A DNA stretch of 17,896 nt from IMG/VR virus record IMGVR_UViG_643348547_000004. One strand, 5' to 3'. This DNA comes from a virus. Lineage: Duplodnaviria; Heunggongvirae; Uroviricota; Caudoviricetes. Positions 1 to 17,896 of this stretch are shown here, piece by piece; the stretch's first letter is position 1, and every line of letters begins with the position of its first letter. The position numbers and the translations under genes are program-made. A model generated the notes under the pieces. It made no database searches and was not told where the DNA came from. It saw nothing but the letters and a program-made list of their open reading frames with translations.

Positions 1-688
1 TTAAATGCCGAGTGGGAAAATATCATGGCCTTGTTCCTGCCAACTGGTGAGTTGCTGCTGTTGGGCAGAGGTTCGATTTTCACCGCACCACACCAGCAAT
101 GTACGGCCTTCGAACAGTTCAGGGCGTAGTTGATTGAGCGAGTGGGCGAGGACATCAATGCGCCATCCTTGTTGACTGGCAATCCAGCCCTCCAGCCACA
201 GACGGGTGGTATCGTGAATATTCCAGCCAACCACCAGCGCATCTTTACCCTGTTTTTTACGTGCCGAAGCCAGACAGATGGCGATGTAGTTGATCAGTAC
301 GCCGTCGAGGATCGCCAGCAGCGCCTGGAGAGTCGGTTGTTGACACTGAAGTCGTCGGCGCAGAGGAATAAACAGATGTGTGGTGAGTGTCTGGGCGGGG
401 TAATCCTGACCGCGCTCTTTGATCCACGTTCGCAGGCTATGCAGATTGCCGCTTTGCAGGTAAGTCAGTAATGTTTCTTGCTGATCGCGCCAGCCGTTCT
501 GCACATCAACATTTTCATTACTGAGCAGCATTTTTACTTTGCTGACCTGCACGCCGTTGTCGATCCAGCGTTTGATCTCGCGGATCCGGTCAATATCGGC
601 ATCGTTGAACAGCCGATGACCGCCGTCTGTCCGTTGCGGTTTCAGCAATCCGTAACGCCTCTGCCACGCGCGTAACGTGACAGGGATT
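1..688 (-). CDS. mlrA: MerR-family transcriptional regulator MlrA (YehV), 3' portion; the N-terminal ~25 codons and promoter are missing from this side of the prophage junction
   Basis: Minus-strand ORF 1..648 with stop (TAA) at 1-3. Translation shows a MerR-type HTH (LLKPQRTDGGHRLFNDADIDRIREIKRWIDNGVQVSKVK) and matches my recollection of E. coli MlrA. The frame stays open upstream to about 688 (..PVTLRAWQRRYGLL), where similarity is lost. Exact junction is uncertain by roughly 10 bp. Confidence 0.75.
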
Positions 689-722
689 AAGGGTAAACTA
701 ACTGATTTTGCAAGTTTTTATT
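689..722. other. Prophage/chromosome junction (attL region) between the mlrA fragment and the integrase stop codon
   Basis: mlrA reading frame breaks here and the adjacent gene is a tyrosine integrase read toward the junction, the arrangement expected at attL of a lambdoid prophage. The att core itself is not identifiable by eye. Confidence 0.5.
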
Positions 723-1177
723 TTACCCAACTTTCTTATGGGGCATACATGGGACACTTTCAGATAGTCTTTTGTTAAGGAGTTCTATCTGTTCGTGATT
801 GTTGTCTTTCATCCATGCTCCGTAAACATTGAATACCATTTGTGCGTTTGTGTGGCCCATCTGGCTTGCGATAAAACTAGGATTAGCTCCTGCGGCAAGT
901 GACCAGCATGCATAAGTATGCCTGGATTGGTACGATTTTCTGTGTCTCAGACCTGCGCGTTTTAAGATACTTGTCCATGACTCCCTGATGGAGTCAACCT
1001 TGTAGTGAGGTCCGGACAACTGCTGCTGTTTTGTTACCTGAGGACTAAAAACAAAAGTGCATTTATGCACAGCAGTTCTCCCATATTCCCTCTGCTTCAC
1101 CTCTACAGAATGTTGCTTTCCAAGCATGGTCATTTCCGCCTGGCTTTTAAGAGCATCAATAGCTGGTTGAACCAGAT
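723..1177 (-). pseudogene. int: Phage tyrosine integrase, C-terminal catalytic fragment; N-terminal part removed at the IS boundary
   Basis: ORF 723..1133 contains tyrosine-recombinase C-terminal motifs (RHTYA, MGH, VYGAW). I checked codon by codon that the frame is open upstream of the listed start as far as the IS inverted repeat at 1178, so the gene is cut by the IS. Confidence 0.7.
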
Positions 1178-1202
1178 TGAACCGCCCCGGGTTTCCTGGA
1201 GA
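1178..1202. repeat. IS terminal inverted repeat, orfB-proximal end
   Basis: Begins with TG and is a 22/25 inverted match to 4733-4757. Confidence 0.8.
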
Positions 1203-1219
1203 GTGTTTTATCTGTGAAC

Positions 1220-1720
<501 letters not shown>

Positions 1721-1743
1721 CTATTTCCCTGCCTCTCCTCCCC

Positions 1744-1777
1744 GAACCGGACGTGCACCTTTCAGCGCATCCGGCTC
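1744..1777 (-). ncRNA. Group II intron catalytic domain V (34 nt)
   Basis: Minus-strand 'GAGCCGGATGCGCTGAAAGGTGCACGTCCGGTTC' closely matches the domain V consensus (AGC triad, GAAA tetraloop, bulge) and lies immediately 3' of the RT stop codon. Confidence 0.8.
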
Positions 1778-1782
1778 TCCAT

Positions 1783-3306
1783 TTAAATGCTGGCGAACGC
1801 CATTGCCACTTCTGTAAAGCGCGATGTATACGTGTTTCTGGTCTCCGTCCTCAGATAGGGATTACCTTCGGGTAGCCGCCAGCGGAACAGCTTCTTGCCT
1901 TGCCCCACCAACCGGTACAGTATTTCGCCGCTGAGCTTGCCGTGATTGGTTTTACCAAATAAAACCCACGTTTTGCTCTGACCCGGTTTCGGTGATTTAC
2001 ACCACCACCTCATCAGGGAAGCGATACCTGTACGGTATTTGCGGGCCAGCCAGTGAGCCAGCTTCCAGAACACGACACGGTCGATATAACTGAAGACTTT
2101 GGCCTTAAAATCAACGAACTGATAGAACATGGCCCAGCCTTTCAGTTTTCGGTTGAGTTGTTCAGCCATATCGACTTTGCTTTCACTGTAGTTGCCTGAT
2201 AACAGTGCTGTCAGCGATGCGGCGAAGTTTCTGGCTTTCTCCTGCGGGATCGTTGAGACCACTCGCATCTCGCCATAACGACTGCGTTTGCGAATGATCC
2301 TGTGCCCCAGAAAGATAAAGCCGTCATTAACATGGGTGATTTTAGTCTTATCCATGTTCAGCCTGAGTTTCAGACTGCCTTCGAGCACACCCCGACACTC
2401 CTCCCTGATGGCTTCCGCCTGTGCTTTGGTGCCTTTGACGATGAGGACAAAATCATCGGCATAGCGGCAGTACGCCACCGCGGGTTTCCACTGCCAGTTT
2501 TCTCTGACCGCCGTACTTCGGCCCCGTTGGATACTGTTATTCCAGTACCACCGATCTTTTCTGGCTTTCCCGCTCAGGTAGCGCTCATGCAGGTATTGAT
2601 CGAACTCATTCAGCATGATGTTCGATAATAGCGGCGATATAACACCGCCCTGTGGCACACCTTCACTGGCCGCCCGAAAGAGACCGACATCGATATGTCC
2701 CGCCTTGATGGTTTTCCACAGCAGAGTCATGAAACGTGCGTCACTGATCCTGCGGCGTACAGCCTTCATCAGCAGTCGATGATGTACGGTGTCGAAGTAA
2801 CTGGACAGGTCGCCTTCAATCACCCAGCGTCCCCGGGTTTCACCGCAGTCTGTGAGCTGTAATTTCACCGTGCGGATCGCGTGGTGGACACTGCGCTCAG
2901 GCCGGAAGCCATATGAGAGCGTATGAAAATCACTCTCCCATATCGGCTCCATCGCCATCAGCATGGCCCGCTGAACAATACGATCCCGCAACGCGGGGAT
3001 ACCCAGTGGTCGCAGTTTGCCGTTGCTTTTAGGGATGTAAACCCGTCTGGCGGGCAAGGGCTGGTAGTGGCCTGAGAGTAATTCATCCCTGAGGATTTGC
3101 AGCTCAACAGCCAGTCTGGCCTGTAGCATTGTTTTGTTCACGCCATCAACGCCGGGGGTATGGGCCCCCTTTGATGAAAGCGTGATCCGCGCCGCTTCAG
3201 CCAGCCATTCTGGTTGTGTTATTAGACGCAGCAGCCGTTGAATCCGTAGGGACGGATCGGTGGCTGCCCATGTGGCAAGCTTGCGTTGCATTTCGCTGAT
3301 TATCAA
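1783..3306 (-). CDS. Group II intron-encoded reverse transcriptase/maturase (507 aa)
   Basis: RT motifs including the YADD box (..AYCRYADDFVLIV..) and a C-terminal maturase (X) region. No Cys/His-rich HNH endonuclease motifs are visible at the C-terminus. Confidence 0.9.
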   Translation of the reverse strand: MIISEMQRKLATWAATDPSLRIQRLLRLITQPEWLAEAARITLSSKGAHTPGVDGVNKTMLQARLAVELQILRDELLSGHYQPLPARRVYIPKSNGKLRPLGIPALRDRIVQRAMLMAMEPIWESDFHTLSYGFRPERSVHHAIRTVKLQLTDCGETRGRWVIEGDLSSYFDTVHHRLLMKAVRRRISDARFMTLLWKTIKAGHIDVGLFRAASEGVPQGGVISPLLSNIMLNEFDQYLHERYLSGKARKDRWYWNNSIQRGRSTAVRENWQWKPAVAYCRYADDFVLIVKGTKAQAEAIREECRGVLEGSLKLRLNMDKTKITHVNDGFIFLGHRIIRKRSRYGEMRVVSTIPQEKARNFAASLTALLSGNYSESKVDMAEQLNRKLKGWAMFYQFVDFKAKVFSYIDRVVFWKLAHWLARKYRTGIASLMRWWCKSPKPGQSKTWVLFGKTNHGKLSGEILYRLVGQGKKLFRWRLPEGNPYLRTETRNTYTSRFTEVAMAFASI

Positions 3307-3962
3307 AGGTCTTCACCTCGTTAGGTCAGTTAATTCACGTCGCAAACACATTCAAACTGCTTCCCTTCGCCATGTAATGGGCTTTCCCCATCGCGGACTA
3401 CTACGGAAGCTCCGCCAGCCAGCGCGTCATCGGAGCCATGCCCCCTTAACATCCGTCGCTGACCTTCCCCGGTTTACCTGCCTGGACTCAGGCATACTGA
3501 GGAGGCTGCCCGTCGCACTCTTTATCCTTGCTTGCCGCAAGTTGGCAGAAGTCAGCAACGCAAGCGTGATAGACGCTGCTGCCCCGGTGTTTCGCATACA
3601 TGTCAAAACACCTTCGACCGGCAGTGCTTACGTATCACTGCCAGTTCCTCCTGCACGGCCTGTCAGATCACGTAGGCCGTGGTGACGTTTTCAACCCACA
3701 GAGGCGGATTAACGGGTTCATGTTCTTCAGCCTTTCAGTACTTAACCTTGAGGATCATCTCGGCTTAGTGATCTCGCCTCAATCCCCGTTGTCAGCGGGT
3801 TACATCACCCTGCGGGCATGCCGCAGGTCACTGCCGCTCAGGTTCTCCACCGTCACACCCGGTGGGATTGTTGGGTTTCTCATCGTGAGTTACCGGTTCA
3901 ATATTCCAGACAGACTCGCGGTTCATTTAAGCATCCATGCCCGCCCTGAACTCCGGGCACAC

Positions 3963-4380
3963 CGTAAGTAAAATCAGCCACCCACAGCTGGTCAGGTCGT
4001 TCTGCCACGAACTGACGGTTTACGCGGTCGCCTGCGGCAACGGCTTTCCGGCTGATGGTCGTACGGACCTTTTTACCCCGGAGAACACCGGCAAGTCCCA
4101 TAACCGCCATGAGACGTGCCACAGTGCATCTGGCCACTCTGATACCTTCCCGTAACAACTGACGCCAGACTTTACGCACACCGTATACCTTGTGATTTTC
4201 ATCGTATACGCGCTGTATCTCTTTCTTCAGCCAGTCATCGCGCTGCGCACGGGCACTGCGTTTATCCGGATGATGTCGCTGTTGCTGACAGTGGTAATAC
4301 GTTGACGGGGCAATATGCAGTTCGCTGCATAGCGGTCCGACCCCGTACTGCTCACGCAGCTTATCCAGCAGTGGCATCAT
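3963..4380 (-). CDS. IS3-family transposase OrfB, exon 1 (N-terminal part through the first catalytic Asp in ..LWVADFTY)
   Basis: ORF 3898..4380 matches IS629 OrfB up to residue ~139 (..VADFTY), then reads into unrelated sequence that begins with 'GTGTG' on the minus strand. Confidence 0.8.
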
Positions 4381-4703
4381 TTTTTCCAGAGGCGGTCGAA
4401 CTCCGCCTTCGCAAAATAAGCGGAAGCCTGGCGAAGGATATCGTTACTGCGGCGCAGTTCACGATTTTCACGTTCCAGCTCTTTCAGACGCTGACGTTCA
4501 GCGGTGGTGAGCCCTCCATCACCGCCCCCGGTATCCCGCTCATGCTGGCGAACCCAGACACGCAGAGTCTCCGGCGTACAGCCAATCTTTGGAGCAATGG
4601 AACAAATTGTCGCCCATTGTGAGTCATATTCGCTCTGACTTTCCAGAACCATACGGACTGCCCGTTGACGGACTTCGGGGGAAAAACGAGTATTTTTAGT
4701 CAT
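4377..4703 (-). CDS. IS3-family transposase OrfA (108 aa, HTH DNA-binding subunit)
   Basis: ORF 4377..4703 ([19 protein letters not shown]...) with the leucine-zipper-like C-terminus typical of IS3 OrfA. Its end overlaps the orfB start through an A-run ('GGAAAAAATGATG' on the minus strand), consistent with the -1 frameshift window of IS3-family elements. Confidence 0.85.
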
Positions 4704-4732
4704 CCTGTTTACCTCTTTCTCAGGAAGTTTAG

Positions 4733-4757
4733 TCTCCAGGATTCCCGGGGCGGTTCA
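4733..4757. repeat. IS terminal inverted repeat, orfA-proximal end
   Basis: Reverse complement is a 22/25 match to 1178-1202. Confidence 0.8.
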
Positions 4758-7669
4758 GTCAGCGGACAGGTACCGCGTTTTCGGATAATGCGGCCCTGTT
4801 TGCCCGTTCGGCTGCCTCGATGCGTGAATATGGTTACAGTGCTGATGATGTGCTGAAGGTGACGGAGGCCATTTCGACAGGACTGAAACTGTCAGGGGCT
4901 GGAGTTGCGGAATCCGGTTCGGTGATCACCCAGTTCAGCCAGGCACTGGCACAGGGTGTACTGCGTGGCGAAGAATTTAATGCTGTTAACGAAAATGGCG
5001 ACCGGGTGATCCGCGCGCTTGCTGCGGGGATGGGTGTGGCCCGTAAAGATCTGAAGGCAATGGCGGATGACGGAAAACTGACAGCGGATAAAGTGGTCCC
5101 CGCGTTAATCAGCCAGCTGGGGATATTACGTGATGAATATGCGGCCATGCCGGAAACGGTTTCCGGTAGTATCACAAAGGTGGAAAACGCCTTTATGGCC
5201 TGGGTGGGCGGTGTGAATGAGGCCAGCGGCTCGACGAAAACGCTCTCCGGCGTGCTGAATGGTGTGGCCGGACATATTGATAATGTGGCCGCGGCGGCGG
5301 GCGTGCTGGTTGCTGTCGGGGTGGCCCGGTACTTTGGCAATATGGCCGCAGGCGTGGGAAAGGCCACCACAGAGCTGATCGCGGCGAAGTCCGGGACGGT
5401 TGCCCTGGCAGCCGCACAGGCAGATGCGTCTGTTCAGGTGCAGCGTAAGGCGGCAGCTGACGCGCTGGCGGCAGAACGTGCCTGGCAACTGGCACAGGCT
5501 GAACTTGCACTGGCCAGAAACACCAGTGCGGAGGCGCTGGCCACACAGAATGCCGTCGCAAAACGCCGGGCCATGATTGTGGCCAATGCCGCACTGGTAC
5601 AGTCGAATCAGGCGGTGGCGGCCTCGAGGAAGGCGCTGGAGAATGCCACGTCGGTTACGGGAATGCTGAAAAGTGGCGCGGCATCCCTGCTTTCGCTTGT
5701 CGGCGGGATACCCGGTTTACTGATGCTGGGAGCCGGTGCCTGGTACACGGTGTACCAGAATCAGGAACAGGCCAGGGAGTCCGCCCGTCAGTATGCATCG
5801 ACGATTGATGAAATCCGGGCAAAGGTACCGGGAATGACCCTTCCGGAACTGGCTGATAATGAGGGTAAAACCCGCGAGGCACTGGAAGAGCAGAATCGTC
5901 TGATTGCTGAGCAGGAAAGTAAAGTCCGGGGACTGAAAACACAGATTGCTGACTATCAGCGCTGGCTGCAGGAAAATCCACAGGGTGGTTCAGGTGCGGA
6001 GATTATAACCCACGGCCTTGCGGAGGCAACCGGCAGGCTGGCGGTCGAGCAGTCACGCCTGACACAGATACAGGAAAAGGCGAAGTCTGTACAGGAAACG
6101 CTGGCGTCACTGGAATACAACCGTGTGGCGAGGATACGTGAGGAGGCGGCAGAGCAGAACAGGGCATACCAGGCATTACTGCAGACGAATGTTCAGCATA
6201 CGGAATTCAACCGTCTGCTGGGGCTGGGGAATGAACTGCTTCAGCAGCGGCAGGGACTGGTGAATGTGCCGTTACGGCTGCCACAGGCCACTCTGGATGA
6301 TAAACAGCAGAGTGCCCTGACAAAAACAGAGCGTGAGCTGGCCCTGTCCAGACTGAAAGGGGAAGAAAAAGAGCGTGTCCGACTGGGGTATGCGGCGGAT
6401 GACCTCGGTTTTGTGGGTGATCCGTATCAGGAGGCGAGACAACGTTATATCAGTAATGCCCTGGAAGCCTGGCGCAATAACGAGGCGAATAAAACCAAAT
6501 CCCGGGGTGGAAAATCAGAGACGGAAAAAGCGGAAGACAGTTTTTCCCGGCTACTGAAGCAGCAGAAAGAGCAACTGGCACTGGCGGGTCAGAATACAGA
6601 GCTGGCGAAGCTGAAGTACCAGACAGCGCAGGGCGAACTGAAAACCCTGACGGAGATACAGAAGCAGGAACTGCTGCGCAATGCGGCCCTGATTGACCAG
6701 CAAAAAATCCGGGAACAGTTGCGATCCCGGGAAGAGACCCTGAAGAATGATAATGTGGCTGCGCGTGCATCAAATGAAGCCGAACTGCTGGGGTACGGGC
6801 AGGGAGAACGAGCCAGGGAACGCATGCGGGAGTTGCAGCAGATCCGCGACAGCTTCCGCCAGAAGGATGCGGACCTTCAGTCTCAGTATCAGACCGGGGA
6901 TATCAGTGAGGATTTTTACAGACAGGCACGGGCACAGAACGCGCAGTATCTGAGCGAACGCCTTAAGGACCAGGCAGCCTTTTATGCCGAATCGGATGCG
7001 CAGCGTGCGGACTGGCAGAAAGGCTTGCAGGAGGGGCTCAGTAACTGGGTGGACAATGCATCCGATTACGCCTCTCAGGCAGCACAGCTGGCAACGGAGG
7101 GGATTTCAGGACTGGTGAATAACATCACGGAGATGCTGAACGGAAACAAAGTGGAATGGCGCAACTGGGCCTCATCCGTACTGCAGGAAATCTCAAAAGT
7201 TCTTATGAATGCCGCGATTGTCAACGGAATTAAGACGGCGGCAAACGGTATGTCCGGTGCGGGAGGATTTATTGGCAGCATTGGTGACTGGCTGGGCGGT
7301 GCGGTGGCCAATGCAAAAGGCGGCGTGTATACCTCGGCAAACCTGAGTGCGTACAGCAACAGCATTGTGGACACGCCCACGTACTTTGCGTTTGCAAAAG
7401 GGGCCGGGCTGATGGGGGAAGCCGGACCTGAAGCCATTATGCCCCTGACCCGGGCGGCGGATGGCTCGCTGGGCGTACGCGCGGTGGGCAGTATGAACGG
7501 CAGTGCCGGTCTGGTGTATTCCCCGGTCTACCACATCGCCATTCAGAATGACGGGGCTAACGGACAGATAGGGCCGGAGGCGGCAGGCAGTCTTGTGCAG
7601 CTGATTGACCAGCGGGTGCAGGCGGTGATGCTGTCCATGCGACGTGACGGAGGAATGCTGAGTGGCTGA
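4758..7669 (+). pseudogene. H: Tail tape measure protein (lambda H homologue), 5'-truncated at the IS boundary
   Basis: ORF 4820..7669 (949 aa), with the frame verified open upstream to the IS end at 4757. It has coiled-coil-rich tape-measure composition and its C-terminus (..NDGANGQIGP..RRDGGMLSG) resembles the lambda H C-terminus as I recall it. There is no upstream start codon or RBS. Confidence 0.8.
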
Positions 7670-8711: not shown

Positions 8712-9455
8712 ATGACACAGACTGAATCAGCGATTCTGGCGCATGCCCGGCGGTGTGCGCCTGCGGAGTCGTGCGGCTTCGTGATAAGCACGCCGGAGGG
8801 GGAGCGGTATATCCCTTGTGTGAATATTTCCGCAGAGCCGGAGGCGTATTTTCGTATCGCACCGGAAGACTGGCTGCGGGCAGAGATGCAGGGGGAGATT
8901 GTGGCACTGGTCCACAGTCATCCCGGTGGGCTGCCCTGGCTGAGCGAGGCTGACCGGCGGCTGCAGATAAAAAGCGCACTGCCCTGGTGGCTGGTCTGCC
9001 GGGGTGACATTCACAAATTCCGCTGCGTGCCGCACCTGACGGGACGGCGCTTTGAGCACGGGGTGACGGACTGTTACACGCTGTTCCGGGATGCATACCA
9101 TCTGGCGGGGACTGAAATGCCGGATTTTCATCGCGAGGATGACTGGTGGCGCAACGGTCAGAACCTTTACCTGGACAATATGGCGGTCACCGGCTTTTAC
9201 CGGGTGCCCCTGTCCTCTGCACAGGCGGGCGATATTCTGCTGTGCTGCTTTGGTGCTTCGGTACCGAACCATGCCGCCATTTACTGCGGCAACGGTGAGC
9301 TGCTTCACCATCTGCCTGAACAACTGAGTAAACGGGAGAGGTATTCCGAAAAATGGCAACGACGAACGCATTCTGTCTGGCGTCACCGCCACTGGCACGC
9401 ATCTGCCTTCACGGGGATTTGCAACGATTTGGCCGCCGCCTCAGCCTGTATGTGA
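8712..9455 (+). CDS. K: Tail assembly protein K (JAB/MPN-like plus NlpC/P60-like regions)
   Basis: ATG at 8712 begins MTQTESAILAHARRCAPAESCGF.., matching lambda K by recollection. The JAMM-like 'HSHPGG..S..D' and a Cys/His pair (DCY .. NHAAIY) are visible. The ORF-track start at 8451 is an in-frame extension overlapping L and is rejected. Confidence 0.85.
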   Translation: MTQTESAILAHARRCAPAESCGFVISTPEGERYIPCVNISAEPEAYFRIAPEDWLRAEMQGEIVALVHSHPGGLPWLSEADRRLQIKSALPWWLVCRGDIHKFRCVPHLTGRRFEHGVTDCYTLFRDAYHLAGTEMPDFHREDDWWRNGQNLYLDNMAVTGFYRVPLSSAQAGDILLCCFGASVPNHAAIYCGNGELLHHLPEQLSKRERYSEKWQRRTHSVWRHRHWHASAFTGICNDLAAASACM

Positions 9456-10033
9456 ACACGGCAGCGGAAGCCATTCGCGCCCTGTCGATGCAGATGCCGG
9501 GCTTTCGCCGTCAGATGAACGAAGGCTGGTACCAGATACGTATTGCCGGTGATGACACGGCACCGGAGGCGGTGTACGCCCGTCTTCACGAACAGCTGGG
9601 TGAGGGAACGGTCATCCACATTGTGCCGCGACTGGCCGGAGCCGGAAAGGGCGGACTGCAGATTGTGCTGGGGGCGGCAGCCATCGTGGGCTCTTTCTTC
9701 ACGGCCGGTGCCTCGATGGCGTTATGGGGTTCAGCCCTGGCAGCCGGTGGTTTTTCTGCCACCACGATGCTGTTTTCACTGGGGGCCAGCATGATACTGG
9801 GCGGTGTGGCACAGATGCTGGCCCCGAAGGCAAAAACACCGGATTACCGCGCAACGGATAACGGCAGACAGAACACGTACTTTTCCTCGCTGGATAACAT
9901 GATTGCCCAGGGGAACCCGATGCCGGTGCCTTACGGGGAAATGCTGGTTGGCTCCCGCCGTATATCCCAGGACATCAGCACCCGTGATGAAGGCGGGGGC
10001 GGAAAGGTCGTGGTTATCGGGCGGCAGGGGTAA
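9353..10033 (+). CDS. I: Tail assembly protein I
   Basis: 226-aa ORF overlapping the end of K. Matches lambda I by recollection (..ARICLYGDLQRFGRR..IVLGAAAI.GSFFTAGA..NTYFSSLDNM..). Confidence 0.85.
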   Translation: MATTNAFCLASPPLARICLHGDLQRFGRRLSLYVNTAAEAIRALSMQMPGFRRQMNEGWYQIRIAGDDTAPEAVYARLHEQLGEGTVIHIVPRLAGAGKGGLQIVLGAAAIVGSFFTAGASMALWGSALAAGGFSATTMLFSLGASMILGGVAQMLAPKAKTPDYRATDNGRQNTYFSSLDNMIAQGNPMPVPYGEMLVGSRRISQDISTRDEGGGGKVVVIGRQG

Positions 10034-10078
10034 AAAGAATAAAAAAATCCCGCAGTGATCGCGGACAGGAACTGCGGG
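10034..10078 (-). terminator. Candidate intrinsic terminator on the minus strand (hairpin followed by a U-tract)
   Basis: 8-bp stem 'CCCGCAGT' (10049-10056) pairing with 'ACTGCGGG' (10071-10078) around a 14-nt loop. On the minus strand it is followed by 'ATTTTTTTATTCTTT' (10048-10034). The long loop makes it less canonical. Confidence 0.5.
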
Positions 10079-10137
10079 AGAGTTACGAAGATTAAGTGTA
10101 AGGAATTATTCTTATATCACGACAAAAAAATTAACGC
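10040..10137 (-). ncRNA. Candidate ~100-nt small RNA in the I-J spacer (promoter-to-terminator unit with no ORF)
   Basis: Bounded by a TTCACA-16-TATAAT promoter (10171-10144) and the terminator at 10078-10034 on the same strand. No ATG-initiated ORF lies between them. Ends are predicted, not measured. Confidence 0.35.
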
Positions 10138-10143
10138 AGCGAA

Positions 10144-10171
10144 ATTATACGCGCCACAGTCAGTTTGTGAA
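10144..10171 (-). promoter_or_regulatory. Predicted sigma70 promoter on the minus strand (-35 TTCACA, 16-bp spacer, -10 TATAAT)
   Basis: Plus-strand 'tgtgaa' at 10166-10171 and 'attata' at 10144-10149 are the reverse complements of TTCACA and TATAAT, with a 16-bp spacer. Confidence 0.4.
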
Positions 10172-10243
10172 AATGTGAAGATATTCAGAATTTTTATGCC
10201 ATTACCGGTTTTAACCAACAGGATTATCGGTGGGCATGAAAGA

Positions 10244-10279
10244 AAACCCCGGTATCTGCTGATACCGGGGTTTCTCTTT
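10244..10279 (+). terminator. Strong bidirectional intrinsic terminator upstream of J
   Basis: Perfect 10-bp stem 'CCCCGGTATC' (10247-10256) and 'GATACCGGGG' (10261-10270) with a 4-nt loop, preceded by an A-tract and followed by 'TTTCTCTTT'. Confidence 0.65.
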
Positions 10280-10376
10280 AGCATGGCAGAAATGTGTTTC
10301 ATGCTTTTCGGGCGAAGGATATCCGACTTCTGTACGGAATGGCAAGTGGCGGTTAATTTATTCAGGGGAAGGCTGT

Positions 10377-13300
10377 ATGGGAAAAGGTGGCGGTAAGGCA
10401 CACACGCCTCGTGAGGCGAAGGATAATCTCAAATCCACGCAGATGATGAGTGTGATTGATGCGATTGGTGAGGGACCGATAGAAGGTCCGGTGAAGGGAC
10501 TGCAGAGTATTCTGGTGAACAAAACCCCACTGACGGACACGGACGGCAATCCCGTGATACACGGTGTGACCGCGGTCTGGCGTGCCGGGGAGCAGGAGCA
10601 GACACCACCGGAAGGCTTTGAGTCCTCCGGAGCTGAAACCGGACTGGGCGTGGAAGTGACGAAGGCAAAACCGGTGACGCGCACCATTACGTCCGCGAAC
10701 ATTGACCGCCTGCGGGTTACCTTCGGGGTGCAGTCACTGGTGGAGACCACGTCAAAGGGCGACCGTAATCCTTCCTCTGTCCGGATTCTGATTCAGTTAC
10801 AGCGTAATGGCCGCTGGGTGACGGAAAAGGATGTCACCATTAACGGCAAGACCACCTCGCAGTTCCTGGCCTCGGTGATTCTGGATAATCTGCCTCCCCG
10901 GCCCTTTAACATCCGGATGGTCAGGGAGACGGCGGACAGCACCACGGACCAGCTGCAGAATAAGACGCTGTGGTCGTCATACACCGAAATCATCGATGTG
11001 AAACAGTGCTACCCGAACACGGCCATTGTGGGGCTGCAGGTGGATGCGGAGCAGTTCGGCGGCCAGCAGATGACGGTGAACTACCATATCCGCGGTCGCA
11101 TCATCCAGGTGCCGTCAAACTATGACCCGGAAAAACGCACGTACAGTGGTATCTGGGACGGCAGTCTGAAACCGGCATACAGCAACAACCCGGCCTGGTG
11201 CCTGTGGGACATGCTGACTCACCCGCGCTACGGCATGGGAAAACGTCTGGGGGCGGCGGATGTGGACAAGTGGGCGCTGTATGCCATCGGGCAGTACTGC
11301 GACCAGACGGTCCCGGATGGTTTCGGGGGGACCGAGCCGCGGATGACCTTTAATGCGTACCTGGCACAACAGCGTAAGGCGTGGGACGTTCTCAGTGATT
11401 TCTGCTCTGCGATGCGCTGTATGCCGGTATGGAACGGTCAGACGCTGACGTTCGTTCAGGACCGCCCGTCGGATGTGGTGTGGCCGTACACCAACAGCGA
11501 TGTGGTGGTGGATGATAACGGCGTGGGGTTCCGCTACAGCTTCAGTGCCCTGAAGGACCGGCACACGGCGGTGGAGGTGAATTACACCGACCCGCAGAAC
11601 GGCTGGCAGACCTCCACGGAACTGGTGGAAGACCCGGAAGCCATACTGCGCTACGGACGCAACCTGCTGAAGATGGACGCGTTCGGCTGTACCAGCCGCG
11701 GTCAGGCCCACCGTGCCGGGCTGTGGGTGATAAAGACCGAACTGCTGGAAACGCAGACGGTGGATTTCACGCTCGGGTCTCAGGGGCTGCGGCACACACC
11801 CGGTGACATCATTGAAATCTGTGATAACGACTATGCCGGGACCATGACCGGCGGACGTGTCCTGTCCATCGATGCCGCCAGCCGTACCCTGACGCTGGAC
11901 CGGGAGGTGACACTGCCGGAGACCGGCACGGCCACTGTTAATCTGATTAACGGCAGCGGTAAGCCGGCGAGCGTGGCCATCACCGCACACCCCGCGCCTG
12001 ACCGGATACAGGTCAGCACCCTGCCGGATGGTGTGGAGACATACGGGGTGTGGGGACTCTCCCTGCCGTCACTGCGTCGTCGCCTGTTCCGCTGTGTCTC
12101 CATCCGGGAAAACACGGACGGCACGTTCGCCATCACGGCGGTGCAGCACGTACCGGAAAAAGAAGCCATTGTGGATAACGGTGCCCGCTTTGAGCCGCAG
12201 TCAGGCAGCCTGAACAGCGTTATCCCACCGGCAGTGCAGCACCTGACGGTGGAGGTGAGTGCAGCTGACGGTCAGTATCTGGCACAGGCGAAATGGGACA
12301 CGCCGCGGGTGGTGAAGGGTGTGCGCTTCAGTCTGCGTCTGACCAGCGGAAGCGGAGAAGACAGCCGTCTGGTGAGCACCGCCATCACCGCAGACACGGA
12401 GCACCGTTTCAGTGGTCTGCCGCTGGGGGAATACACCCTGACGGTGCGGGCCATTAACAGCTACGGCCAGCAGGGCGAACCTGCGACCACCACCTTCCGG
12501 ATTAACGCGCCTGCAAAACCCGCCACCATTGAGCTGACGCCGGGGTATTTTCAGATAACGGCGGTCCCGCGTCTTGCGGTGTATGACCCGACGGTACAGT
12601 TTGAATTCTGGTTCTCAGAAAAACGCATCACGAACACAGCACAGGTGGAAAAATCTGCCCGTTATCTGGGGACCGGCAGTCAGTGGACTGTCCAGGGGAG
12701 CCGGATTAAGCCGGGGACGGATTTCTGGTTTTACGTGCGAAGCGTCAACCTGGTGGGAAAATCTGCTTTTGTGGAAGCCAGCGGGCAGCCCAGCAATGAT
12801 GGTGAAGGGTATCTGGAAATTTTCCGGGGGCTGATAGATGAGACGCTTCTGGGCCAGGCACTGAAAGAGCGCATTGATGCTTCAGCGCTGCGTACGGAGG
12901 TCACGCAACTGGAAGAAGATATCCGTCAGCGGATGGACACGGATATTGCGGAAGTGACCCGGAAAATCGGGGAGGCGGAAAACAGCCTCACGCAGCTGGT
13001 TGCGAAAAAGAATGAGGACCAGACACTGGCCATCGCGCAGGTGAGCCAGAAAGTGGACCGGGTGAGCAGTGAAATCTCACAGACTGTCAGCCAGGGGCAG
13101 TCAGAAAACGCCCGACAGATAGCACAGGTCCGCCAGTACGTGGATGAAAAAGGGAGTGAAATTACCTCGACCACGGATAAAAAGCTGGGTGACCAGGCCG
13201 TGACCATACAGCAAATCCAGCGGGTTCAGTCAGACACGCGCAATGAGCTGAATGCCATGTATATGCTGAAGGTGCAGAAAACAAAAAACGGTATTCCCTA

Positions 13301-14069
13301 TGTGGCCGGGATTGGTGCGGGGATTGAGGATGTTGATGGTCAGACGCTGAGCAGTATTCTGCTGCAGGCGGACCGTATCGCGATGATTACCCCGGAGAAT
13401 GGCAACACCACGCCGCTGTTTGTGGCGCAGGGGAATCAGCTGTTCATGAACGACGTGTTCCTGAAGCGACTGTTTGCGGTGAGCATCACGTCATCCGGCA
13501 ATCCTCCTACGTTTTCCCTGACGCCGGATGGCAGGCTGGCAGCCCGCAATGCGGATATCAGTGGAGCCATCACGGCGAATACCGGCACGCTCAATAATGT
13601 CACCATTAACGAGAACTGTGTCATCAGAGGGAAACTGTCTGCAAACCAGATTGAAGGCGATCTCGTTAAAACAGTGGGTAAGGCTTTCCCCCGTGACTCC
13701 CGTGCACCGGAGAGGTGGCCATCAGGGACCATTACCGTCAGGGTTTATGACGATCAGCCGTTTGACCGGCAAATTGTTATTCCGGCGGTGGCATTCAGCG
13801 GTGCCAGACATGAGCGGGAGAATAACGATATTTATTCGTCATGCCGCCTGATAGTACGGAAAAACGGTGCTGAAATTTATAACCGTACCGCGCTGGATAA
13901 TACGCTGGTTTACAGTGGTGTTATTGATATGCCTGCTGGTCGCGGCCACATGACGCTGGAGTTTTCTGTATCAGCATGGTGGGTAAATGGCTGGTATCCC
14001 ACAGCAAGTATCAGCGATTTGCTGGTTGTTGTGATGAAGAAAGCCACTGCAGGCATCACGATTAGCTGA
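10377..14069 (+). CDS. J: Tail tip / host specificity protein J (1,230 aa)
   Basis: Extensive match to lambda J by recollection from the N-terminus ([22 protein letters not shown]..) through the fibronectin-like and C-terminal regions. RBS 'AGGGGAAGG' precedes the ATG. It is about 100 aa longer than lambda J because of an expanded coiled-coil segment. Confidence 0.9.
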
Positions 14070-14137: not shown

Positions 14138-14737
14138 ATGCGTAAATTATGTGCTGTTATTCTGTCCGCAGTAGTCTGGCTGGTTGCCGCTGGTACACCA
14201 GCGAGCGCAGCAGAGCATCAGTCCACACTAAGCGCCGGGTATCTTCAGACCCACACTGATATGCCAGGCAGCGATAATCTGAACGGGATTAACGTGAAAT
14301 ACCGTTATGAGTTTACGGACGCGCTGGGGCTGATTACGTCCTTCAGTTATGCCAATGCTGAGGATGAGCAAAAAACGCACTACAGCGATACCCGCTGGCA
14401 TGAAGATTCCGTGCGTAACCGCTGGTTCAGCGTGATGGCGGGGCCATCTGTACGCGTGAATGAATGGTTCAGTGCTTATGCGATGGCAGGTGTGGCTTAC
14501 AGCCGTGTGTCGACGTTCTCCGGGGATTATCTCCGCGTAACTGACAACAAGGGGAAAACGCACGATGTGCTGACCGGAAGTGATGACGATCGCCACAGCA
14601 ACACGTCTCTGGCGTGGGGAGCTGGCGTGCAGTTTAACCCGACCGAATCCGTGACCATTGATATTGCTTATGAAGGTTCCGGTAGTGGCGACTGGCGAAC
14701 GGATGCATTTATTGTTGGTATCGGATACCGTTTCTGA
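14138..14737 (+). CDS. lom: Outer membrane protein Lom (Ail/Lom/OmpX family beta-barrel)
   Basis: 199-aa ORF with a signal peptide (MRKLCAVILSAVVWLVAAGTPASA) and a C-terminus (..IAYEGSGSGDWRTDAFIVGIGYRF) matching the lambda Lom C-terminus by recollection. Position between J and stf is as in lambda. Confidence 0.9.
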   Translation: MRKLCAVILSAVVWLVAAGTPASAAEHQSTLSAGYLQTHTDMPGSDNLNGINVKYRYEFTDALGLITSFSYANAEDEQKTHYSDTRWHEDSVRNRWFSVMAGPSVRVNEWFSAYAMAGVAYSRVSTFSGDYLRVTDNKGKTHDVLTGSDDDRHSNTSLAWGAGVQFNPTESVTIDIAYEGSGSGDWRTDAFIVGIGYRF

Positions 14738-14842
14738 CAACAGACGCCGATTTATCTTCTGTAAATATTGTTATGATACGCAGGTTCATCCGCCTTATGG
14801 GGTGAACTGCGTTTGAGGAAACGTAAAGTTACACTGTCCTGA

Positions 14843-14875
14843 AGCCCGTGGCGTCACTGCTGCGGGCTTTTTTTA
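14843..14875 (+). terminator. Intrinsic terminator after lom
   Basis: Stem 'AGCCCG' (14843-14848) pairing with 'CGGGCT' (14863-14868), followed by a run of seven T. Confidence 0.6.
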
Positions 14876-17647: not shown

Positions 17648-17896
17648 TTATTGCATAAACCAGTCGTCCGCGGTTTGCCAGACTTCCTGTAGTGTTTCCT
17701 GTACGAACTCCAGTGCTGATTCTTTATCGACGGCTCTTAAAATGGTGAGTCCATCATTGCTGGCAGATTTAACGATCACATCTGCATCGTCATATCGCTT
17801 ACCTATGCGGCGCAGCATTTCTTGCTGCAGAGCAGGAACAGAACCTTTCGGCATTTTGCTGATTTTTTCTTTAGCGATACAGATCTCAACACGCAT
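17648..17896 (-). CDS. DinI-family protein (82 aa)
   Basis: Pattern MR.E..IAK..(17)..RI..(25)..ETLQE.W..ADDWF aligns with E. coli DinI as I recall it (MRIEVTIAK.. ..ILQETWESADDWF). The start codon lies at the last bases of the window. Confidence 0.75.

Follow-up and report, generated by a model that had tools for sequence, protein, structure and literature searches.

PasB is one of five prophage small RNAs (sRNAs) of enteropathogenic Escherichia coli E2348/69 that were found by RIL-seq, in which interacting RNAs are ligated and sequenced, on Hfq and confirmed by Northern blotting (Pearl Mizrahi et al. 2021, PMC8550237). It was assigned to 83 nucleotides (nt) on the minus strand of prophage PP6 (NC_011601.1, 1466343 to 1466261; table S6), and for this E2348/69 allele only, the probe AATCCCGCAGTGATCGCGGAGCT detected a band of matching size, the stability of the RNA depended on Hfq and the RNA was lost in an hfq mutant, with log2 fold changes of -6.8 and -2.4 for pasB in the hfq comparison (PMC8550237). 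Of its 37 RIL-seq partners, 30 were coding sequences (CDSs) or 5' untranslated regions (5' UTRs); PasB nearly always formed the second RNA in a chimera (RNA2 fraction 0.99-1.0), and its longest U-tract was 7 (PMC8550237). Here we describe a relative of PasB in 17,896 nt of viral DNA (IMG/VR record IMGVR_UViG_643348547_000004), the whole of which we call the window. An AT-rich spacer of 343 bp (10034-10376; GC content 0.39-0.41, compared with 0.57-0.63 in the flanks) separates two tail genes in it, I and J, and positions 10041-10137 of the minus strand are very probably the gene for a trans-acting, Hfq-dependent sRNA of the PasB family of about 97 nt, carried as an autonomous moron between I and J of a lambdoid prophage remnant. 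The elements of this unit are the following.

10171-10192, minus strand: invariant upstream box AATTCTGA-ATATCT-TCACATTT, resembling a CRP site, centred at about -44.5 from the predicted +1
10144-10171, minus strand: sigma-70-type promoter, with -35 TTCACA (10171-10166), a 16-nt spacer and -10 TATAAT (10149-10144)
10041-10137, minus strand: predicted PasB-family sRNA transcript, with +1 near 10137, 7 nt past the -10, and the 3' end in U7 (10047-10041)
10087-10105, minus strand: conserved CU-rich core UUCCUUACACUUAAUCUUC, a putative seed resembling an anti-Shine-Dalgarno sequence
10041-10079, minus strand: Rho-independent terminator and presumed Hfq-binding module, with stem 10079-10071/10056-10048, a 14-nt loop and U7 (10047-10041)

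In the RefSeq record of E2348/69, the PasB interval lies between a tail assembly protein gene (ending at 1466255) and gpJ (starting at 1466496), matching the window unit both in position and in its direction against the late operon, and in all 15 further homologous loci fetched with annotation or open reading frame (ORF) context the unit was again found between I and J. Alleles were taken from E. coli genomes, from deposited phages and from IMG/VR contigs, and 22 distinct ones, with the window and its three closest relatives excluded, were used to build a covariance model. It gave a single match in the window, at 10041-10137 on the minus strand, which spanned model positions 1-97 of 97 (73.3 bits, E 1.3e-11), the next-best match having an E-value of about 1. 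When 17 complete units with their promoters were made into an nhmmer profile, this matched 10203-10037 (E 6.7e-39), and nothing else in the window scored below E 0.5. The Northern probe for PasB matches the window at 10046-10068 in 20 of 23 positions, with its first 20 bases identical, and in a pairwise alignment of the two units the promoter, the 5' GCGUUA with the following U-run, the CU-rich block holding AAUCUUC and the 3' half of the terminator with U7 are nearly identical, while the middle has diverged. Because of the covariance-model and nhmmer matches, the position between I and J in all loci and the lack of a conserved ORF, we assign the window unit to the PasB family.

The preliminary description of this DNA, made from its letters alone, had noted the AT-rich spacer between I (ending at 10033) and J (starting at 10377), the TTCACA-16-TATAAT promoter at 10171 to 10144 and a hairpin with a U-tract downstream of it, with no ORF in between, and had read these as a stand-alone sRNA gene directed against the late operon, of the Hfq-dependent kind reported from prophages. 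The features were borne out and the reading is supported: the promoter was found again and is unique in the window, the hairpin is a perfect 9-bp stem followed by U7 (10079-10041), a comparison of 13 spacers showed no ORF with a conserved strand, frame or sequence, in keeping with a non-coding unit, and synteny and homology with the validated PasB support the sRNA gene. Its further statement that the candidate could be assigned to no named sRNA no longer holds, in view of the covariance model, the nhmmer profile, the synteny and the probe match. The Rfam/Infernal search that it had proposed did not supply the name: no Rfam 15 family, including AgvB (RF02702), AsxR (RF02703), STnc100 and Esr41, matched 9950-10450 at gathering score, and the best sub-threshold matches at E-values up to 10 (17-20 bits, against cut-offs of 39-315 bits) were terminator look-alikes. 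RefSeq annotates nothing in the spacer in any of the listed genomes, a literature search with the terminator sequence string found no paper, and one for transcript evidence from uropathogenic E. coli or CFT073 found nothing relevant.

The promoter scores 11/12 in a consensus scan and is the sole match of at least 11/12 in the 17.9-kb window, where dinucleotide shuffles give a chance expectation of 0.10 per window and 0.005 per spacer. Across the 17 aligned units the -10 is kept as (N)ATAAT/ATCAT and the nominal -35 is variable past its first TT, and a box TCTGA-N6-TCACATTT stands upstream of every one of them (17/17), with invariant halves, a variable 6-nt spacer and a constant distance to the -10. 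Invariant halves, a variable middle, a fixed distance to the -10 and a variable -35 are together what would be expected of a site for a dimeric regulator at an activator-dependent promoter. The 22-mer AATTCTGAATATCTTCACATTT agrees with the CRP consensus AAATGTGA-N6-TCACATTT at 14 of the 16 specified positions (two mismatches); it is the single such match in the window, in which 0.08 are expected at up to three mismatches. Counted from the first base of the -10, the centre of the box is 32.5 bp upstream (about -44.5), 3 bp beyond the canonical class II position of -41.5. PasB chimeric fragments were about sevenfold more numerous in overnight static lysogeny broth (LB) than in exponential DMEM (Dulbecco's modification of Eagle's medium; 1820 against 258), and the CRP-repressed Spf showed the reverse pattern (387 against 7925), in a comparison in which the conditions also differ in growth phase and oxygen (PMC8550237). 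These differences in conditions, and the centre of the site near -44.5, argue against a textbook class II promoter, and CRP control of the PasB-family units is put forward as a lead rather than a finding. A sigma-S signature, C at -13, was considered and set aside, the base at -13 being variable among the aligned alleles.

The perfect 9-bp stem of the sRNA terminator, followed by T7 on the minus strand, lies about 90 nt downstream of the predicted start at 10137, and the U7 tract ends a few bases from the stop codon of I. The stem CCCGCAG/CUGCGGG and the U7 are invariant in the 22 alleles, and the terminator is supported by its thermodynamics, by the U7 tract and by the mapped 3' end of PasB. 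Upstream of it, the core shows the invariant columns A..TCC.T and T.ATCTT across alleles and is mostly unpaired in the predicted fold; it reads CUCCUU in PasB and UUCCUUA in the window allele. The seed of PasB has been placed in the single-stranded stretch immediately upstream of the terminator (Zhu et al., bioRxiv 10.64898/2026.05.13.724894). The family scaffold can thus be written as a 5' GCGUUA, a U-run, A..UCC.U...U.AUCUU and the CCCGCAG/CUGCGGG stem with U7, with variable parts between.

Over the predicted transcript, the window allele shares 74% identity with PasB, and its nearest relatives are found in Stx2c- and Stx1a-converting phages (93%) and O111 strains (88%). It has in common with PasB the promoter architecture, the upstream box, the 5' GCGUUA with its U-run, the CU-rich core with AAUCUUC and the stem with U7, and differs in that the region from the U-run to the terminator is mostly replaced and the terminator loop is of 14 nt rather than the 11 of PasB. 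Among the IMG/VR alleles are PasB itself and PasB-2, which was published as differing from it by one C-to-A change at position 27, and this agreement also places the published 5' end on the alignment. When canonical PasB was used as a megablast query, 956 of 5426 complete E. coli genomes matched, all at 90% identity or more, and the window allele was not among the matches; a blastn search with the window unit found some member of the family in 1835 of the 5426, or about one-third. The window allele itself accounts for 471 matches in complete-genome records at 99% identity or more and another 172 at 95-99%, and the genomes carrying it at 95% or more include CFT073, S88, ATCC 25922, CE10 and VR50. 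In an exact 18-mer scan of one genome per GTDB species, only six chance matches in unrelated taxa were seen, so that at that stringency there was no sign of an occurrence outside the E. coli accessory genome.

The distribution of PasB in Escherichia and Shigella has been surveyed with the 83-nt E2348/69 sequence as query at a word size of 28, and its variants were described there as only a few nucleotides apart (Zhu, Shabalina & Storz 2026, bioRxiv 10.64898/2026.05.13.724894). Exact words common to the window allele and that query reach 25 nt at most, so the window allele was most probably missed by the survey and is most probably absent from its data set. On the sequences compared here, we regard it as a divergent, widespread and unannotated member of a published family. 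The family, its dependence on Hfq and its prophage context were known already, and the present result extends these without adding a new kind of element; PasB-type regulation in extraintestinal E. coli has probably been under-counted, since the window allele seems not to be covered by the sole published study of distribution. The words 'promoter', 'CRP' and 'cAMP' do not occur in the text of the 2026 survey, where 'tandem' is used only in arguing against tandem duplication of pasA and pasD; the CRP-like box, the anti-Shine-Dalgarno-like core and the tandem arrays described below are thus not mentioned in that text, the 2021 paper not having been searched for them. These three features bear on the inducing signal and on whether a swap of seeds between alleles would change the targets.

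We propose that the sRNA would be transcribed from its own sigma-70 promoter, behind the invariant CRP-like box, and would end at the Rho-independent terminator, and that Hfq would bind the U7 and hairpin module together with the U/A-rich stretch upstream. The single-stranded CU-rich core would most likely pair with the purine-rich ribosome-binding regions of host and prophage mRNAs, and such pairing would repress the translation or the stability of these targets. Since the window allele differs from PasB in and around the core, its target set is probably in part a different one. Expression of the window allele, the identity of its seed, the targeting of ribosome-binding sites and control by CRP are all steps that we infer. 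Selection for a function is suggested by the conserved scaffold around a variable middle, by the occurrence of the unit in 1835/5426 genomes and by its intact state in a remnant.

Several observations weigh against this proposal. Expression has been shown for the E2348/69 allele of PasB only, to which the window allele is just 74% identical, and the targets of PasB had no common motif in the original study (PMC8550237). PasB is not in Rfam, and therefore no curated model could be applied. The terminator shows no covariation among the 22 alleles, because its stem never varies. The CRP-like box is centred near -44.5, at neither the canonical -41.5 nor -61.5. Finally, the published 5' end of PasB was derived from read coverage and falls some 15 nt downstream of the +1 that the conserved TATAAT predicts (1844 against 1859 in our E2348/69 locus, L001), which makes the true 5' end or the processing of the RNA uncertain: the end given by coverage may be an approximation, or the sRNA may be processed at its 5' end.

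The right half of the spacer was considered separately from the sRNA unit and comprises two features.

10196-10376, plus strand: right-hand spacer module of 181 bp, including the ribosome-binding region of J
10244-10273, both strands: perfect 13-bp hairpin with a 4-nt loop (arms 10244-10256 and 10261-10273)

The preliminary description had called this hairpin a strong bidirectional terminator. As a hairpin it is indeed very stable, with free energies of -27.1 kcal/mol (plus strand) and -26.0 kcal/mol (minus strand) and z-scores of -7.9 and -7.3. Both of its T-tracts are broken up, TTTCTCTTT on the plus strand and TTTTCTTTC on the minus, and the hairpin was not called in the consensus terminator scan; it is probably an intrinsic terminator or insulator upstream of J. 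It was further said to insulate the sRNA unit from late transcription, which it is unable to do, since on the plus strand the sRNA gene comes before it. Its effect would at most be to end plus-strand transcripts ahead of J or, on the minus strand, to protect the sRNA promoter against antisense read-in from J. No plus-strand promoter of at least 9/12 that could drive an RNA ending at this hairpin was found in the consensus scan. In two IMG/VR contigs with long-type spacers (L031 and L084), an exact deletion between two AGAAA repeats has removed the hairpin together with the next 20 or so bases, which makes the hairpin dispensable, at least for persistence of the prophage. Identity over the module as a whole is 99% or more in 1441 of the 1450 E. 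coli records, compared with 74-100% for the adjoining sRNA unit in the same spacer type; the plus strand of the module folds into three hairpins (z -2.8), and its invariance leaves no covariation in the 13-bp hairpin.

In lambda, J does not follow I directly, as had been stated in the same description: a gap of 60 bp, lacking the sRNA unit, holds the hairpin AACCGCC-TGCG-GGCGGTT followed by TTGTCATTT on the late-operon strand (L106 764-790, corresponding to NC_001416 15463-15489). Short PasB-bearing spacers of 235-254 bp have, at the same place upstream of J, a plus-strand hairpin CAGGCAYCC-loop-GGRTGCCTG followed by TTGTTTTT, in which one pair shows the series C-G / U.G / U-A. The hairpins of the window, the short spacers and lambda are analogous in position and not homologous in sequence, and only the window spacer type has a U-rich tail on the minus strand at the J-proximal hairpin. 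Since lambda and the short spacers also have one, a plus-strand hairpin with a T-tract upstream of J looks like a feature of the late operon, and the sRNA cassette sits inserted between the stop codon of I and this hairpin. The inserted module is in essence the sRNA unit of about 170 bp, with an extra 100 bp or so in the window spacer type. The spacers are mosaic, in that PPompW-type prophages and many IMG/VR contigs join PasB-2 to exactly the right half seen in the window, and the window sRNA allele is also present with short spacers.

The same spacer can hold three or four tandem units on the same strand, each with its TCTGA-N6-TCACATTT box. In E. coli O104:H21 CFSAN002236 (L104), the array occupies 601-1335, with covariance-model matches at 601-693, 821-915 and 1274-1335, and in an IMG/VR contig (L016) it occupies 4418-5000, with matches at 4418-4509 and 4643-4740. 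Each of the two arrays also has one divergent unit that the model missed, with a terminator CUCCCGU...ACGGGAG and a core (A/C)CUCCUUAAGGUGA. This core contains the last eight or nine bases of 16S rRNA and so mimics its 3' end. A degenerate PasB-like second unit in the right half of the window spacer was sought as well; TGAATAAA...TTGCCATTCCG...GATATCCT is promoter-like by eye, and the candidate was discarded, as neither the covariance model nor the nhmmer profile of 17 units detected it. We offer only tentatively, as a possibility rather than an expectation, the wider reading in which the I-J junction is a dedicated slot for interchangeable sRNA cassettes, which have a common CRP-like-box promoter and Hfq/terminator scaffold, differ in their anti-Shine-Dalgarno-like seeds and occur singly or in arrays of two to four units, the allele of the window and CFT073 being a distinct seed variant that is common in extraintestinal E. 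coli and outside the published surveys. Were this so, that allele would link catabolite or stationary-phase status to the translation of its own set of host mRNAs.

Other explanations of the spacer have to be set against a trans-acting sRNA. In every locus examined, the gene opposes the late operon from a fixed spot immediately upstream of J; the unit is packed within a few nt of the stop codon of I, and an RNA perfectly complementary to the I-J spacer of the late mRNA might act mainly in cis: the RNA or convergent transcription would lower J-lom-stf expression, or RNase III would cut the late transcripts, of its own prophage or of a related superinfecting phage. As the main activity we think this unlikely, given that PasB forms Hfq-dependent chimeras with 37 partners, mostly CDSs and 5' UTRs of core and accessory genes, that it is abundant in uninduced lysogens, and that the unit persists in a remnant without the late promoter region; nor would a purely cis-antisense RNA require a seed-like core to be conserved while the flanking body varies. 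A cis mechanism could, however, coexist with the action in trans. That the promoter and terminator are instead the decaying or neutral remnant of a moron, with no regulatory role in the window allele, is suggested by the divergence of its middle region from the validated PasB, by the remnant state of the host prophage and by expression evidence that is limited to PasB of E2348/69. We rate this as very improbable, because the promoter, upstream box, 5' end, core and terminator are intact and match the invariants of the family, and the allele (at 95% identity or more) is present in about 640 complete-genome records, intact prophages among them.

A small protein encoded by the spacer is the least credible of the alternatives, and we give it next to no weight. 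Hypothetical CDSs of 32-50 amino acids have been annotated here automatically in phages PhiR12_1 and 1720a-02, and in the window ORFs of 61 amino acids (minus strand) and 113 amino acids (plus strand) cross the spacer. From allele to allele, however, such ORFs change in strand, frame and sequence; they also extend across promoters and terminator hairpins and are missing at 25 amino acids or more from two spacers, and the alignment indels are not multiples of three; with no ORF conserved across the spacers, the small-protein reading was rejected. For the right-hand module, a second and unrelated minus-strand sRNA of about 75 nt in 10196-10376 can be imagined, read from a weak promoter, TTGCCA-18-TATCCT (10345 to 10316), and ending at the 13-bp hairpin with UUUUCUUUC. 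The 9/12 promoter match, the very stable hairpin with its U-rich tail on the minus strand, the near invariance of the module in more than 1400 genomes and the tandem units in the I-J spacer of other prophages, where each unit is preceded by the terminator of another, would all fit such a gene. Its existence seems to us improbable nonetheless: the family covariance model and nhmmer profiles do not recognize the module, no upstream box is present and the -10 is poor, the invariance leaves no covariation, and the natural variants L031 and L084 delete the hairpin exactly.

The prophage that carries the PasB-family unit has the following further features.

1-648, minus strand: mlrA, a core gene
723-1133, minus strand: phage integrase fragment
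1220-1666, 3898-4380 and 4377-4703: pieces of an IS3-family transposase (rve in the first, helix-turn-helix in the other two)
1783-3306: reverse transcriptase/maturase ORF of a group II intron that splits the IS3-family transposase, with the 3'-terminal catalytic-intron motif at 1693-1779 (Rfam Intron_gpII)
4306-4422: ALIL frameshift pseudoknot of the IS3-family transposase
9353-10033, plus strand: tail assembly protein I gene (ORF list; Pfam Lambda_tail_I, E 1.7e-16; CFT073 annotation)
10377-14069, plus strand: tail tip attachment protein J gene (Pfam Ig_J, FNIII-A_GpJ, Phage-tail_3 and Ig_GpJ_C)
14138-14737, plus strand: lom

The lambda-type tail genes of the window run on the plus strand, from a 5'-truncated tape-measure gene (4820-7669) through M, L, K, I, J and lom to a tail-fibre gene. 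Gene I is the 3' neighbour of the sRNA terminator, and its RefSeq homologues begin at the equivalent of 9452. Matches to other genomes start only at 4755, the tape-measure gene being truncated near 4755-4820, and the left end consists of mlrA, the integrase fragment, the IS3/intron pieces and the truncated gene; for these reasons, the prophage is a lambdoid remnant that has no early, lysis or head genes. The left-end junction (window 1-4820) is covered by none of the complete E. coli genomes in the collection. Everything between the integrase fragment and the tape-measure gene has been lost, and the sRNA unit is nonetheless intact; the 343-bp spacer differs at one position from its copy in the complete tail operon of CFT073. 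Between lom and the tail-fibre gene, a strong terminator-like hairpin of 13 pairs with T8 was observed at 14841-14870 on the plus strand; an nhmmer match to the PasB terminator region at this place was weak and not significant (E 0.51). At the right end, on the strand opposite to the tail genes, lies a DinI-like ORF (17648-17896, minus strand; Pfam DinI, E 6.7e-17).

Morons are described, as quoted in PMC4104026, as extra DNA with its own promoter and terminator in lambdoid late operons (Juhala et al. 2000). The window unit has this appearance: it is extra DNA between late genes, in a gap of 343 bp compared with the 60 bp of lambda, its GC content of 0.39-0.41 deviates from the surrounding value of about 0.6, and it has its own promoter and terminator. 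The AsxR/AgvB and EcOnc sRNAs of enterohaemorrhagic E. coli are likewise Hfq-bound morons at conserved lambdoid positions, with a conserved 3' scaffold and a variable targeting part, but they lie 3' of PR' near the stx and lysis genes, measure 51-60 nt and serve as sponges for core sRNAs (PMC4104026); the Rfam models of AgvB and AsxR gave no match at the window unit. An identity with an entry of the EcOnc table was dismissed, as neither of the two Sp12 entries (2234239 and 2237479) is at the position of PasB in Sakai, 2217630-2217727 (Tree et al. 2014, PMC4104026), and HnrS was dismissed as the identity of the window unit because it belongs to a different locus. The sRNA at Sakai Sp12 2234239 provides a precedent for a multicopy sRNA from the late region of prophages that represses a host mRNA by pairing at its ribosome-binding site. 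It is unlike PasB (Sakai 2217630) in being at another locus, 66 nt long and confined to strains positive for the locus of enterocyte effacement, and no sequence relationship between the two is claimed or seen. At a class II CRP promoter, TGTGA-N6-TCACA is centred at -41.5 over a weak -35, and the candidate box of the PasB family is centred at about -44.5. CyaR, an Hfq-dependent sRNA of E. coli, is activated by cAMP-CRP. Should CRP bind the TCTGA-N6-TCACATTT box, the PasB family would follow the same regulatory logic as CyaR, with a -35 that is poorly conserved, as in activator-dependent promoters.

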